DNA from: a virus
Lineage: Duplodnaviria; Heunggongvirae; Uroviricota; Caudoviricetes
Virus record (IMG/VR): IMGVR_UViG_2675903278_000006
Length of the DNA: 7,446 nt
Direction: 5' to 3' (one strand)
Shown here: positions 273-5,915 of the stretch, piece by piece
Layout: every line of letters begins with the position of its first letter
Numbering within the stretch: the first letter of the stretch is position 1
Program-made: the position numbers and the translations under genes
The notes under the pieces: generated by a model
Databases searched by the model: none
What the model was told of the DNA's origin: nothing
Seen by the model: the letters and a program-made list of their open reading frames with translations, nothing else

Positions 273-295
273 ATCAGTAAGTTGGCAGCATCACC
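273..295. repeat. IS1 terminal inverted repeat (IRL); outermost IS1 base at 295
   Basis: The + strand 273-295 is ATCAGTAAGTTGGCAGCATCACC, the reverse complement of the IS1 end GGTGATGCTGCCAACTTACTGAT. Prophage-type sequence begins at 296. Confidence 0.8.
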
Positions 296-776
296 TAAAA
301 CGTCTACTCCTGCTGTTCCAGAATAACTTCATAAAATGGGAGTATTTTTCGGTGACGAGATAATAAGAACAGTTTGCGCTATCACTCTGATGTTGAATGA
401 TGCCCTTCCGTTCTAATTTTTTCATAACCGGGTTACGGCAAGGAGAAGTGATAATAAGATTTCCTGTTTTAAGGAAATCTTTAAATACAGCGATTTCTTT
501 CTCAGATAAACGAAGCAATACTCGTTGCTCTGGTAGTAATGAATAATGCTTTTGAATATGTGCTCGCAATCTTGAGAAGGAAATGGCGACCACGAAAGAA
601 AAGGCAAAAACGATAATCTGAAAGAGCCAAGGCATTTCAGTATAAGCATTGAATGCGACAGTAAACTCTTTCGGTATCAGCCAGAGAGTGAGACCAAAAA
701 TGATAATCGTATACATAAGTCTTTCGAGTGGCTCGTTAGCAAAAAGTTTCAACAATGGAGTAAATACATCCAACAT
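291..776 (-). CDS. sieB: SieB superinfection-exclusion protein (161 codons); last codon and stop codon contributed by the IS1 terminus
   Basis: The - strand frame from ATG (rc of 774-776) reads MLDVFTPLLKLFANEPLERLMYTIIIFGLTLWLIPKEF...WLFQIIVFAFSFVVAISF..., with two hydrophobic segments typical of SieB. A weak SD-like GAGAG lies about 10 nt upstream. The stop TGA (rc of 291-293) is inside the IS1 end and the final Arg codon (294-296) spans the junction. An in-frame open extension up to GTG at 1086-1088 exists but is not favoured. Confidence 0.6.
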   Translation of the reverse strand: MLDVFTPLLKLFANEPLERLMYTIIIFGLTLWLIPKEFTVAFNAYTEMPWLFQIIVFAFSFVVAISFSRLRAHIQKHYSLLPEQRVLLRLSEKEIAVFKDFLKTGNLIITSPCRNPVMKKLERKGIIQHQSDSANCSYYLVTEKYSHFMKLFWNSRSRRFR

Positions 777-1216
777 ATCAATAACTCTCAACTGTAAGGG
801 TATTGAAATGTTAACACAAGCTCTCGCTGTAGGGGTATAGCCGAGACCACCGAAGCCCGGAGGTGGTGAAATAAAACCGGGCACAACACGAAGGCGCATT
901 TCCGATATCCATAAAGAGTCGGTCTTGTCTGTTAAATTTAAATGGTGGAGTGCGCCTCCGGTTGTAAATAACGACATTGCTGTGTGTAGTCCTGGCGGCA
1001 TCAGTTTTTTTCTTGAAGTTCGGCTGATGTCCGCCCTTTTTAAAGTGAATTTTGTGATGCGGTGAATGCGGCTAAGCGCACGTGGCACAGTTAAAAGTCA
1101 TGTTAGTCCTTATTGGTTTGGGTGGGAAAGCCGACTGTAATTGTTAACTGGTTGCAGTCACCTGGAGGCACCAGGCACCGCATCAACAAAGTTCATTTGT
1201 AAAAATGGAGATAATT
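777..1216. promoter_or_regulatory. Divergent sieB / kilR intergenic control region (promoters not resolved)
   Basis: A 440-bp gap separates the divergent sieB and kilR starts. One candidate sigma70-like pair on + is TTGGTT (1113-1118), 17 bp, TGTAAT (1136-1141). A tandem heptamer AGGCACCAGGCACC sits at 1166-1179. None of this is verifiable from sequence alone. Confidence 0.3.
994..1041 (+). terminator. Candidate intrinsic terminator upstream of kilR (GC-rich stem, large loop, T5 tract)
   Basis: GGCGGCATCAG (994-1004) pairs with CTGATGTCCGCC (1024-1035), giving an 11-bp stem with a 1-nt bulge and a 19-nt loop, followed immediately by CTTTTT (1036-1041). The large loop lowers confidence. Confidence 0.3.
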
Positions 1217-1438
1217 ATGATTGCACATCACTTCGGAACTGATGAAATACCACGTCAGTGTGTGACTCCTGGCGATTATGTTCTTCATGAAGGCCGGACA
1301 TATATTGCCTCGGCAAACAATATTAAAAAGCGAAAACTATATATTCGTAACCTGACCACAAAAACATGCATTACTGACCGCATGATTAAAGTCTTCCTCG
1401 GTCGTGATGGTTTACCTGTAAAGGCGGAGTCATGGTGA
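1217..1438 (+). CDS. kilR: KilR, prophage killing protein reported to inhibit cell division (73 aa)
   Basis: Translation [73 protein letters not shown] matches KilR as I recall it. GGAG at 1206-1209 lies 7 nt before ATG 1217. The ORF-track start at 1205 has no SD. Confidence 0.85.
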
Positions 1439-1682: not shown

Positions 1683-1958
1683 ATGATTACCAATTATGAA
1701 GCCACTGTTGTAACTACCGATGACATTGTTCACGAGGTGAATCTGGAAGGAAAGCGCATTGGCTACGTAATTAAAACAGAAAATAAAGAAACCCCATTCA
1801 CTGTGGTTGATATCGATGGTCCATCAGGCAACGTAAAAACACTTGATGAAGGTGTCAAAAAAATGTGCCTGGTGCATATCGGAAAGAATCTGCCCGCAGA
1901 AAAAAAAGCCGAATTTCTGGCAACTCTAATTGCAATGAAATTAAAAGGTGAAATCTGA
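1683..1958 (+). CDS. racC: RacC (91 aa), function unknown
   Basis: Translation MITNYEATVVTTDDIVHEVNLEGKRIGYVIKTENKETPFTVVDIDGPSGNVKTLDEGVKKMCLVHIGKNLPAEKKAEFLATLIAMKLKGEI. A strong SD AAGGAG (1671-1676) lies 6 nt before ATG 1683. The ORF-track start at 1635 lacks an SD. Confidence 0.85.
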   Translation: MITNYEATVVTTDDIVHEVNLEGKRIGYVIKTENKETPFTVVDIDGPSGNVKTLDEGVKKMCLVHIGKNLPAEKKAEFLATLIAMKLKGEI

Positions 1959-1963
1959 AAGAA

Positions 1964-1988
1964 ATAGCCTGCGTATGGCGCAGGCTAT
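1964..1988. repeat. 10-bp perfect inverted repeat (stem-loop) in the racC-recE spacer
   Basis: ATAGCCTGCG (1964-1973) and CGCAGGCTAT (1979-1988) are exact reverse complements with a 5-nt spacer TATGG. On the - strand the stem is followed by TTCTTTCAGATTT, which is terminator-like. On the + strand it is not followed by a T tract. Confidence 0.4.
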
Positions 1989-2059
1989 GAACAGTGTGTA
2001 TCCGGCAAGATCATTCACTGAACAAAACGAATTTTAATCTGAGTTGAGGTTAAAAAACA

Positions 2060-4660
2060 ATGAGCACAAAACCACTCTTCCTGTTACGGAAAGCGAAAAA
2101 ATCATCCGGTGAACCTGACGTCGTCCTGTGGGCAAGCAACGATTTTGAATCGACCTGTGCCACTCTGGACTACCTGATCGTTAAGTCAGGTAAAAAACTG
2201 AGCAGCTATTTTAAAGCTGTTGCCACGAATTTTCCTGTCGTTAATGACCTGCCCGCTGAAGGTGAGATCGATTTTACCTGGAGTGAACGCTATCAACTCA
2301 GCAAAGACTCCATGACATGGGAACTAAAACCGGGAGCAGCACCAGACAACGCTCACTATCAAGGCAATACCAACGTCAACGGCGAAGACATGACTGAGAT
2401 TGAGGAGAATATGCTACTCCCAATTTCTGGCCAGGAACTGCCCATTCGTTGGCTTGCTCAACACGGCAGCGAAAAACCGGTAACGCACGTTTCACGCGAC
2501 GGACTCCAGGCATTACACATTGCTCGGGCTGAAGAACTACCGGCTGTTACTGCCCTGGCTGTTTCCCACAAAACCAGCCTGCTCGACCCGCTGGAAATTC
2601 GCGAACTCCACAAACTGGTTCGTGACACTGACAAAGTTTTCCCTAATCCTGGTAATTCAAACCTGGGACTGATAACTGCTTTTTTCGAAGCATACCTGAA
2701 CGCTGACTACACCGATCGAGGACTGCTGACAAAAGAGTGGATGAAGGGTAATCGTGTTTCACACATCACTCGCACGGCTTCCGGTGCTAATGCTGGCGGC
2801 GGAAACCTCACCGATCGCGGCGAAGGTTTCGTACACGATCTGACGTCACTGGCGCGCGACGTAGCCACTGGCGTACTGGCCCGTTCAATGGATCTGGACA
2901 TCTATAACCTTCATCCGGCACACGCTAAACGCATTGAGGAAATTATCGCTGAAAATAAACCGCCCTTTTCTGTTTTCCGCGACAAATTCATCACCATGCC
3001 TGGCGGGCTGGATTATTCCCGCGCCATCGTGGTTGCGTCCGTAAAAGAAGCACCAATTGGGATCGAGGTCATCCCCGCGCACGTCACTGAATATCTGAAC
3101 AAAGTACTGACTGAAACCGATCATGCCAACCCTGATCCGGAAATCGTGGATATTGCCTGCGGTCGCTCCTCTGCCCCGATGCCGCAGCGAGTAACAGAAG
3201 AAGGAAAACAGGATGATGAAGAAAAACCGCAACCATCTGGAACAACGGCAGTTGAACAGGGAGAGGCTGAAACAATGGAACCGGACGCAACTGAACATCA
3301 TCAGGACACGCAGCCGCTGGATGCTCAGTCACAGGTAAATTCTGTTGATGCGAAATATCAGGAACTGCGGGCAGAACTCCATGAAGCCCGGAAAAACATT
3401 CCATCAAAAAATCCTGTCGATGCCGATAAATTGCTTGCTGCATCACGTGGTGAATTTGTTGACGGAATTAGCGACCCGAACGATCCGAAATGGGTAAAGG
3501 GGATCCAGACTCGCGATTGTGTGTACCAGAACCAGCCAGAAACGGAAAAAACCAGCCCAGATATGAATCAACCTGAGCCAGTAGTGCAACAGGAACCGGA
3601 AATAGCCTGCAATGCCTGCGGCCAGACTGGCGGGGATAACTGCCCTGACTGTGGTGCGGTGATGGGCGACGCAACATACCAGGAAACATTCGCTGAAGAG
3701 AGTCAGGTTGAAGCTAAGGAAAATGATCCGGAGGAAATGGAAGGCGCTGAACATCCGCACAATGAGAATGCTGGCAGCGATCCGCATCGCGATTGCAGTG
3801 ATGAAACTGGCGAAGTCGCAGATCCCGTAATCGTAGAAGACATAGAGCCAGGTATTTATTACGGAATTTCGAATGAGAATTACCACGCGGGTCCCGGTAT
3901 CAGTAAGTCTCAGCTCGATGACATTGCTGATACTCCGGCACTATATTTGTGGCGTAAAAATGCCCCCGTGGACACCACAAAGACAAAAACGCTCGATTTA
4001 GGAACTGCTTTCCACTGCCGGGTACTTGAACCGGAAGAATTCAGTAACCGCTTTATCGTAGCACCTGAATTTAACCGCCGTACAAACGCCGGAAAAGAAG
4101 AAGAGAAAGCGTTTCTGATGGAATGCGCAAGCACAGGAAAAACGGTTATCACTGCGGAAGAAGGCCGGAAACTTGAACTCATGTATCAAAGCGTTATGGC
4201 TTTGCCGCTGGGGCAATGGCTTGTTGAAAGCGCCGGACACGCTGAATCATCAATTTACTGGGAAGATCCTGAAACAGGAATTTTGTGTCGGTGCCGTCCG
4301 GACAAAATTATCCCTGAATTTCACTGGATCATGGACGTGAAAACTACGGCGGATATTCAACGATTCAAAACCGCTTATTACGACTACCGCTATCACGTTC
4401 AGGATGCATTCTACAGTGACGGTTATGAAGCACAGTTTGGAGTGCAGCCAACTTTCGTTTTTCTGGTTGCCAGCACAACTATTGAATGCGGACGTTATCC
4501 GGTTGAAATTTTCATGATGGGCGAAGAAGCAAAACTGGCAGGTCAACAGGAATATCACCGCAATCTGCGAACCCTGTCTGACTGCCTGAATACCGATGAA
4601 TGGCCAGCTATTAAGACATTATCACTGCCCCGCTGGGCTAAGGAATATGCAAATGACTAA
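2060..4660 (+). CDS. recE: RecE, exonuclease VIII (866 aa), 5'-3' dsDNA exonuclease with a C-terminal PD-(D/E)XK nuclease domain
   Basis: An 866-codon ORF with SD GAGG about 10 nt upstream. The C-terminal segment [18 protein letters not shown] places Asp at codon 748 (4301-4303), Asp at 759 (4334-4336) and Lys at 761 (4340-4342), matching the RecE catalytic triad as I recall it. The stop TAA (4658-4660) overlaps the recT start. Confidence 0.95.
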
Positions 4661-5462
4661 GCAACCACCAATCGCAAAAGCCGATCTGCAAAAAACTCAG
4701 GGAAACCGTGCACCAGCAGCAGTTAAAAATAGCGACGTGATTAGTTTTATTAACCAGCCATCAATGAAAGAGCAACTGGCAGCAGCTCTTCCACGCCATA
4801 TGACGGCTGAACGTATGATCCGTATCGCCACCACAGAAATTCGTAAAGTTCCGGCGTTAGGAAACTGTGACACTATGAGTTTTGTCAGTGCGATCGTACA
4901 GTGTTCACAGCTCGGACTTGAGCCAGGTAGCGCCCTCGGTCATGCATATTTACTGCCTTTTGGTAATAAAAACGAAAAGAGCGGTAAAAAGAACGTTCAG
5001 CTAATCATTGGCTATCGCGGCATGATTGATCTGGCTCGCCGTTCTGGTCAAATCGCCAGCCTGTCAGCCCGTGTTGTCCGTGAAGGTGACGAGTTTAGCT
5101 TCGAATTTGGCCTTGATGAAAAGTTAATACACCGCCCGGGAGAAAACGAAGATGCCCCGGTTACCCACGTCTATGCTGTCGCAAGACTGAAAGACGGAGG
5201 TACTCAGTTTGAAGTTATGACGCGCAAACAGATTGAGCTGGTGCGCAGCCTGAGTAAAGCTGGTAATAACGGGCCGTGGGTAACTCACTGGGAAGAAATG
5301 GCAAAGAAAACGGCTATTCGTCGCCTGTTCAAATATTTGCCCGTATCAATTGAGATCCAGCGTGCAGTATCAATGGATGAAAAGGAACCACTGACAATCG
5401 ATCCTGCAGATTCCTCTGTATTAACCGGGGAATACAGTGTAATCGATAATTCAGAGGAATAA
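4653..5462 (+). CDS. recT: RecT, single-strand annealing protein (RecT/Red-beta family, 269 aa)
   Basis: Translation from ATG 4653 is [35 protein letters not shown]...[17 protein letters not shown] (4640-4644) lies 8 nt upstream. ATGACTAA gives an 8-nt overlap with recE. The ORF-track start at 4596 is an in-frame extension inside recE. Confidence 0.95.
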
Positions 5463-5469
5463 TTCAGCC

Positions 5470-5506
5470 TGGCGGTGTAATGCACCGCCAACTTGAAATA
5501 TTTTTT
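5470..5506 (+). terminator. Weak terminator/attenuator candidate between recT and ralR
   Basis: TGGCGGTG (5470-5477) pairs with CACCGCCA (5483-5490) around a 5-nt loop. A T6 run (5501-5506) follows, but only after a 10-nt spacer, so this is atypical for an intrinsic terminator. Confidence 0.25.
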
Positions 5507-5518
5507 ATGAGAAAAATT

Positions 5519-5713
5519 ATGAGATATGACAATGTTAAACCATGTCCATTTTGTGGTTGTCCATCAGTAACGGTGAAAGCCATTTCAGGATATTACCGAG
5601 CGAAGTGTAACGGATGCGAATCCCGAACCGGTTATGGTGGAAGTGAAAAAGAAGCACTCGAAAGATGGAATAAACGAACCACTGGAAATAATAATGGAGG
5701 TGTTCATGTATAA
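5519..5713 (+). CDS. ralR: RalR (Lar) restriction-alleviation protein, also reported as a DNase toxin (64 aa)
   Basis: Translation MRYDNVKPCPFCGCPSVTVKAISGYYRAKCNGCESRTGYGGSEKEALERWNKRTTGNNNGGVHV has two C-x2-C pairs. The start was chosen to give the 64-aa protein I recall. The SD is weak, and in-frame ATGs at 5507 and 5480 are alternatives. Confidence 0.8.
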   Translation: MRYDNVKPCPFCGCPSVTVKAISGYYRAKCNGCESRTGYGGSEKEALERWNKRTTGNNNGGVHV

Positions 5714-5915
5714 AATTACCGCCACTATTGAAAAGGAAGGTGGCACTCCTACTAACTGGACAAGATATTCAAAATCTAAACTAACGAAATCAGAATGCGA
5801 AAAAATGCTCTCAGGTAAAAAAGAAGCAGGCGTTTCCAGAGAGCAGAAAGTAAAACTGATAAATTTTAATTGCGAGAAACTTCAGTCCTCGAGAATTGCA
5901 TTGTATTCAAATTAA
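5706..5915 (+). CDS. ydaC: YdaC (69 aa), function unknown
   Basis: Translation MYKITATIEKEGGTPTNWTRYSKSKLTKSECEKMLSGKKEAGVSREQKVKLINFNCEKLQSSRIALYSN. GGAGG (5696-5700) lies 5 nt before ATG 5706. The gene overlaps the ralR 3' end by 8 nt. The ORF-track start at 5634 is an extension. Confidence 0.7.
   Translation: MYKITATIEKEGGTPTNWTRYSKSKLTKSECEKMLSGKKEAGVSREQKVKLINFNCEKLQSSRIALYSN

Follow-up and report, generated by a model that had tools for sequence, protein, structure and literature searches.

The perfect inverted repeat at positions 1964-1988, between racC and recE of the Rac prophage, is very probably an ordinary intrinsic terminator on the minus strand, ending a minus-strand antisense small RNA of a predicted 65 nt or so, from approximately 2025 to 1960. 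This reading is based on an in vivo RNA 3′ end at 1960 (-), on covariation of the stem that is strand-specific, and on the terminator of the Salmonella small RNA IsrB, which occupies the equivalent position in other prophages. Among the options offered by the original prediction, that of a terminator for antisense transcripts is the one borne out by these three lines of evidence. The hairpin, the U tract, the pairing as minus-strand RNA and the 3′ end were observed directly. What is new here is an abundant, unannotated RNA of E. coli K-12; IsrB in the equivalent Salmonella prophage position was already known.

The whole stretch of DNA analysed (7,446 nucleotides, termed the window) comes from the cryptic Rac prophage of E. 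coli K-12, of which it represents the early-left region. In megablast searches positions 1600-2400 were 100% identical to E. coli K-12 MG1655 and to many further strains, and the minus strand of the window corresponds to the plus strand of the genome NC_000913.3. In that record no feature is annotated on the opposite strand between recE and racC. Besides the genes listed here, the window holds the early-left genes kilR, ydaE and recT.

287-775, minus strand: sieB.
1683..1958, plus strand: racC, with its stop codon at 1956-1958; NC_000913.3 complement(1417488..1417763).
2060..4660, plus strand: recE, with its ATG from 2060; NC_000913.3 complement(1414786..1417386).

A number of other elements were seen in the window. 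The small RNA KilS occupies 944-1041 (+) in the sieB-kilR spacer (NC_000913.3 complement 1418405-1418502). Within it, Rfam gave a DicF-like match at 981-1036 (+) that stayed below the threshold (39.1 bits vs 48, E 6e-6); in the equivalent place of a related locus, L017, the DicF match is a full one of 72.6 bits. In the kilR 5′ leader, directly after KilS, a sub-threshold STnc100-like match (35.5 bits vs 47) was obtained at 1038-1224 (+), as it was in an E. ruysiae locus (L018). An imperfect 20-nt inverted repeat, 80% complementary, is found at 5458-5502, at the junction of the recT stop and the ralR start, with more repeats at 5409-5460.

The arms of the repeat under study, ATAGCCTGCG (1964-1973) and CGCAGGCTAT (1979-1988), are 100% complementary and enclose a 5-nt loop, so that the perfect 10-bp inverted repeat originally described is confirmed. 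The spacing was also correct, with 6 nt from the final base of the racC stop to the repeat and 71 nt from the repeat to the recE ATG. The repeat had been called the longest perfect GC-rich hairpin; two perfect repeats of at least 10 bp with loops of 3-8 nt occur in the window, and this is the only G+C-rich one. The second, at 456-481 within sieB, has the A+T-rich arms AAGATTTCCT and AGGAAATCTT and a 6-nt loop. In 1000 dinucleotide-preserving shuffles, 0.048 perfect repeats of at least 10 bp were expected per window (one or more in 4% of the shuffles), and 0.005 when at least 6 G-C pairs were present (0.4% of the shuffles). The repeat at 1964-1988 is thus a real feature and not one of chance, since far fewer than one such repeat per window is expected by chance. 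That it is an accidental palindrome, or one copy of a REP-type dispersed repeat, has next to no probability: all that speaks for it is that E. coli does have palindromic repeats, and against it stand the expectation for perfect 10-mers rich in G+C (0.005 per window) and the low copy number of the segment. A 49-nt segment carrying the hairpin was present in 1446 of 5426 complete E. coli genomes, with a median of 1 and a maximum of 2 copies per genome, and the median of 1 rules out a REP or other dispersed palindromic repeat. Among the eight matches listed for this segment, seven have a racC-type CDS annotated under the match.

As minus-strand RNA the repeat reads AUAGCCUGCG-CCAUA-CGCAGGCUAU, a stem of 10 bp with 6 G-C pairs and a loop of 5 nt. 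The RNA and the elements at its 3′ end are as follows.

1960..2025, minus strand: predicted antisense sRNA of ~64-66 nt, complementary to the racC-recE spacer; 3′ end mapped, 5′ end predicted.
1964..1988, minus strand: terminator hairpin of the antisense RNA, from the inverted repeat, its fold, strand-specific pairing across 28 alleles and RNAalifold.
1955..1963, minus strand: U-rich tract UUCUUUCAG that follows the stem, in which the RNA was mapped to end at the U of position 1960.

The T-rich tail had been placed on the minus strand and does lie there, as TTCTTTCAG (1963-1955); the plus strand after the stem reads GAACAGTGT. In a scan for terminators which called for at least 5 T in an 8-nt window, the minus-strand tail passed, and this site was the top terminator-like match of the whole window (10 pairs, 6 G-C, tail TTCTTTCAGA). 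The U tract is broken by a C, UAUUUCUUUC (UUCUUUC). On the plus strand no T or U tract follows the stem, by which a bidirectional terminator was ruled out. In a 56-nt context the minus-strand RNA folded at -17.6 kcal/mol (z -6.2), with none of 200 shuffles as good, and the plus-strand RNA of the K-12 allele folded at -18.8 kcal/mol (z -3.2). Because the K-12 hairpin is as stable in plus-strand as in minus-strand RNA, it may have a secondary role in the mRNA.

Strand-specific mapping of 3′ ends over 1955-1995, which had been suggested as a check of the repeat, is provided by published Term-seq data, and these contain an abundant minus-strand end at 1960 (Adams et al. 2021, eLife; PMC7815308). 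In the part of Supplementary file 1 covered here, a curated MG1655 3′ end is given at 1417486 (+), corresponding to window position 1960 (-). The RNA thus ends 4 nt beyond the 10-bp stem and 7 nt beyond its G-C core, with 2 nt to go before the racC stop codon. The coordinate was found three times in this three-sheet file, which has one sheet per growth condition, with average reads of 185,664 (LB, OD 0.4) and 146,140 in two of the sheets (PMC7815308). The 61-nt sequence given for the site is TCTTGCCGGATACACACTGTTCATAGCCTGCGCCATACGCAGGCTATTTCT followed by TTCAGATTTC, and the 3′ end is its base 51, as was checked on the sgrS row and on the distance to a second site in racR (PMC7815308). The mapping of the coordinate also agrees with the racC boundary in NC_000913.3. 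Only 6 of the ~85 Term-seq rows examined exceed this site in counts, and in the curated list as far as covered it is the sole 3′ end between 1411575 and 1419679 on either strand (PMC7815308). In file 2, as far as covered, the 1078 Rho termination regions defined with bicyclomycin hold no entry for racC or for coordinates beginning 14172 to 14175, an indirect test only, with windows of 800 nt (PMC7815308). Outside the window, in the racR region, the portion of the Term-seq data covered gives strong ends at NC_000913.3 1419679 (-) and 1420148 (-), each with ~40,000-190,000 reads; one of them is an orphan and one is internal to racR.

The pairing of the stem was compared among ~200 loci from genomes of E. 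coli, Shigella and E. ruysiae and from IMG/VR contigs, which yielded 28 distinct alleles and were aligned with MAFFT. Two main allele classes were found. Alleles of the K-12 type make up class A. Those of class B have AGGCCUGCAC-NNN-GUGCAGGCUU and then UCU6-7, and their U tract, TTTCTTTTTTT (U3CU7), is more canonical than that of K-12. When read as minus-strand RNA, the nine shared pairs are paired in all 252 cells of the 28 alleles. Compensatory changes occur at two pairs (U-A/A-U and G-C/A-U), and one-sided variants at three (G·U/A-U/G-C at the second pair, U·G for C-G, and G·U for A-U). The pairing or covariation score was matched in 0 of 500 shuffles, slid registers dropped to 15-52%, and RNAalifold independently predicted the identical helix. 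When the same alignment is read as plus-strand RNA, 224 of 252 cells are paired and all 28 failures are C·A, so that every one-sided change is tolerated only in minus-strand RNA. One or two stem pairs turn into C·A in 21 of the 28 alleles. On the comparison of alleles, selection for pairing is shown in minus-strand RNA only.

The loop is hypervariable, both in sequence (GUU, ACU, AGU, ACA, GUC, UCU, UGA; CCAUA/UCAUA/UAUGG) and in length (3-5 nt). The loop at 1974-1978 was also seen flipped among alleles (CCATA vs TATGG; ACT vs AGT; ACA; loci L037, L019, L005 and L002), a change that looks like palindrome-mediated template switching with the stem left as it was. The alignment further contains a sharp mosaic boundary: positions 1989-2030, the putative transcribed body, are about half diverged between classes A and B, and the 43 nt of 2033-2075, over the predicted antisense promoter and the recE ribosome-binding site, are invariant.

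A stem that varies with its pairing kept, together with a hypervariable and even inverted loop, indicates selection on structure and argues against a sequence-specific protein site. The repeat had been considered a possible protein-binding dyad, and its perfect dyad symmetry and intergenic place would suit an operator or recombination site for a dimeric DNA-binding protein. The arms, however, differ between the allele classes with compensating changes, the loop varies from 3 to 5 nt, and the Gifsy-type stem is wholly different, a pattern that fits RNA structure; such a site is highly improbable.

A role of the hairpin mainly in the plus-strand early-left mRNA, as a 3′ stabiliser, as a site for RNase III or for processing, or in limiting read-through into recE, is likewise improbable, if somewhat less so. 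The K-12 plus-strand RNA folds equally well, and the place just after the racC stop codon suits a protective 3′ hairpin. A 10-bp stem is, however, short for RNase III, the plus strand has no U tract, and the C·A mismatches arise in most alleles in stem pairs that all pair as minus-strand RNA. These observations disfavour the stabilising hairpin of a kilR-ydaE-racC message and the processing site, both of which had been proposed. In the Term-seq list, as far as covered, no plus-strand 3′ end is given at the repeat, though the operon was repressed under the conditions used (PMC7815308).

A promoter for the antisense RNA is predicted on the other strand of the recE start region, with the following elements.

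2036-2031, minus strand: predicted -10 TAAAAT, from the sequence; aligns with TAGAAT of Gifsy isrB.
2060-2055, minus strand: weak -35-like TTGTTT (3 of 6 matches, 18-nt spacer), overlapping the first base of the recE ATG.
2046-2049, plus strand: recE Shine-Dalgarno GAGG, inside the predicted antisense promoter, as is the recE ATG.
1992..2020, minus strand: predicted upstream stem-loop of the RNA, CAGUG...CACUG, from single-sequence folds.

The minus strands of Rac and Gifsy can be aligned from the recE start codon through the -10 (CTCATTGTTTTTTAACCTCAACTCAGATTAAAATTCG vs CTCATTGTTTTGTCCTCAATTCGTGTAGAATGGAGG), which puts TAAAAT at 2036-2031; the similarity of Rac and Gifsy DNA starts only at window position 2041. 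The 94-nt form of IsrB begins 6 nt downstream of TAGAAT (positions 1497-1492 of locus L008). From the position of the -10 and the analogy to IsrB we infer a 5′ end at ~2025-2023, and hence an RNA of 64-66 nt. TAAAAT is intact in 95 of 95 loci which were picked by the terminator pattern alone, and the divergence between the allele classes starts immediately downstream of it. This conservation could equally reflect the recE 5′ UTR. A predicted A+U-rich hairpin at 2034-2057 (+), in which UUUUAAUC pairs with GAGGUUAAAA, would sequester the recE Shine-Dalgarno and has no Gifsy counterpart.

Within the body of the RNA, class-B alleles have another predicted stem in the position of the upstream stem-loop, GAGUGA...UCACUC. 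MAFFT does not put the class-A and class-B stems in register, and because the two classes lack a consistent alignment here this stem-loop is regarded as a prediction only. A small minus-strand ORF, from a GTG at 2018 and running to 1941, was considered and rejected; it extends past the mapped 3′ end without a stop codon, and the predicted antisense RNA is therefore taken to be non-coding. In Rfam searches of the whole window and of 1930-2080, the hairpin gave only noise (Phe/Leu-leader-like, E 0.4-1.2). Hfq RIL-seq tables hold no racC/recE intergenic RNA, only KilS, and the antisense RNA is not prominent in them.

The 3′ end might instead belong to a long pervasive antisense transcript from inside recE or recT, which the hairpin ends or for which it is a processing stop, with no dedicated sRNA. 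The Term-seq data, as far as covered, give the 3′ end only, the predicted -35 is weak and below threshold, and a consensus promoter scan did not call the antisense promoter. Against such a transcript, the predicted -10 lies at the position matching the isrB promoter, whose 5′ ends were mapped, and is invariant in the 95 independently chosen loci; no better minus-strand promoter was seen within 300 nt upstream; and a stable small RNA would agree with the very high number of reads. A long untranslated antisense RNA in Rac is also expected to be shortened by Rho. The long transcript is hence considered unlikely, and the short antisense RNA with its own promoter is the preferred reading.

In the mechanism proposed for this short RNA, RNA polymerase would start at ~2025-2023 from a promoter lying over the recE ribosome-binding site and start codon, and would cross the racC-recE spacer until the G+C-rich hairpin forms and the RNA is freed in the U-rich stretch at 1960. 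The hairpin would afterwards serve as the protective 3′ end of the short antisense RNA. The terminator would also stop antisense transcription from entering racC-kilR and going on to sieB. The likeliest function of the RNA would be to dampen, in cis, the expression of recE(T) from leaky or early left-operon transcripts. Two routes can be pictured, alone or together: RNase III cleavage of a duplex that the RNA forms with the racC-recE spacer, and interference from the convergent promoter on the recE start. This function is itself inferred, and a cis-antisense role of the Rac RNA is put forward tentatively, as a possibility that falls short of being probable. A direct block of translation is unlikely, because the RNA is perfectly complementary to the spacer but not to the recE ribosome-binding site itself. 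Pairing in trans with the recE initiation region was not above that of shuffled RNAs for Rac class A, Rac class B or IsrB.

The original prediction had also connected the repeat with the long-known need for activating mutations before recE is expressed. As a cause this link found no support, and the hairpin does not explain the need for sbcA. The sbcA mutations reportedly relieve prophage repression or fuse recE to promoters well upstream (1980s genetics by Kaiser & Murray and by Fouts et al.). The antisense RNA could at most be a second silencing layer on recE, and it would be a testable layer of recET silence beyond repression by RacR. The sbcA literature covered makes only the general statement that sbcA activates recET.

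RacC is a retron-toxin blocker and RecE a retron trigger, the two genes thus forming a blocker/trigger pair for retron defence. An antisense RNA between the two genes is a plausible control point because the pair is such a blocker and trigger. A broader and rather doubtful proposal would place the Rac RNA and IsrB, though unrelated in sequence, in a single class of prophage antisense RNAs defined by position, with a promoter on the recE ribosome-binding site and a terminator abutting the upstream gene. The Rac RNA would cut or block the early transcript between racC and recE, and in this way keep RecET silent in lysogens and set the RacC:RecE ratio. If this is true, the RNA would regulate a counter-defence gene pair from the point where its two genes meet. 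No bacterial genome is better annotated than that of K-12, and naming the RNA would fill a gap in its annotation at one of the stronger Term-seq ends of the region.

The hairpin shares with canonical Rho-independent terminators a G+C-rich stem, a short loop, a 3′ U-rich tract, an A-rich 5′ flank which lengthens the stem by pairing with the first U's, and an RNA end 7 nt after the G-C core. It differs in the C that interrupts its U tract, and the class-B alleles are more canonical in this respect.

Two other phage RNAs can be compared. The OOP RNA of phage lambda (work of Krinke & Wulff) is said to be a 77-nt antisense RNA that ends at an intrinsic terminator and whose duplex with cII is cleaved by RNase III. 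As is predicted for the Rac RNA, this short phage RNA is made from a promoter of its own, ends in a strong terminator hairpin, runs against an early operon and is complementary over its full length to part of the mRNA. OOP, however, belongs to the right operon and lies opposite the cII 3′ end; the Rac RNA is located in the left (recombination) operon and faces an intercistronic spacer. RalA, the already known RalR antitoxin, is found in the window at 5712-5890 (-) with 225 bits (RF02694) and is likewise a minus-strand sRNA expressed from the silent Rac prophage. It differs in being a 179-nt type I antitoxin that overlaps its toxin gene; the Rac RNA overlaps no coding sequence.

The closest likeness in position is to IsrB, which was found through an orphan-terminator screen; northern blot and primer extension confirmed it as an RNA of 88/94 nt. 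It lies between sbcA (a recE homologue) and STM1010/STM2631, in the opposite orientation, and is named among the ProQ-associated prophage sRNAs. In the Gifsy-1, Gifsy-2, SPN3UB, Citrobacter and Raoultella loci, an unrelated minus-strand hairpin with a U tract follows right after the stop codon of the gene preceding recE, a gene itself unrelated to racC. The Rfam isrB model (RF01386) matches the Gifsy, Citrobacter and Raoultella loci with 50-99 bits (99, 96, 50), and this hairpin is the isrB 3′ end. The model (gathering threshold 35 bits) gave no match in the whole window (E<=5), in the 151 nt of 1930-2080 (E<=10), or in the Rac-type loci L003, L015, L018 and L019. Membership in Rfam isrB was ruled out by this result, and the Rac RNA is thus likened to IsrB by position. 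In position it agrees with isrB, being antisense and between recE/sbcA and the preceding small gene.

Both IsrB (isrB-1 and isrB-2 in Gifsy-2 and Gifsy-1) and the Rac RNA are accordingly placed between a recE homologue and an upstream small gene and oriented opposite to both. In both, the intrinsic terminator lies directly against the upstream gene's stop codon, ~21-24 bp separate the -10 (predicted for Rac) from the recE ATG of the opposite strand, and the RNA is short and structured (the body being a prediction for Rac). The two differ in that they have no detectable similarity by sequence or covariance model and that IsrB measures 88/94 nt, against ~65 nt predicted for the Rac RNA. IsrB has a central hairpin, GGUCCGG...CCGGAC, which the Rac RNA does not. 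Both ends of IsrB were mapped experimentally, the Rac RNA having its 3′ end mapped, and ProQ association is reported for IsrB. The Rac RNA would give IsrB an E. coli partner, one that can be studied in a locus relevant to recombineering.
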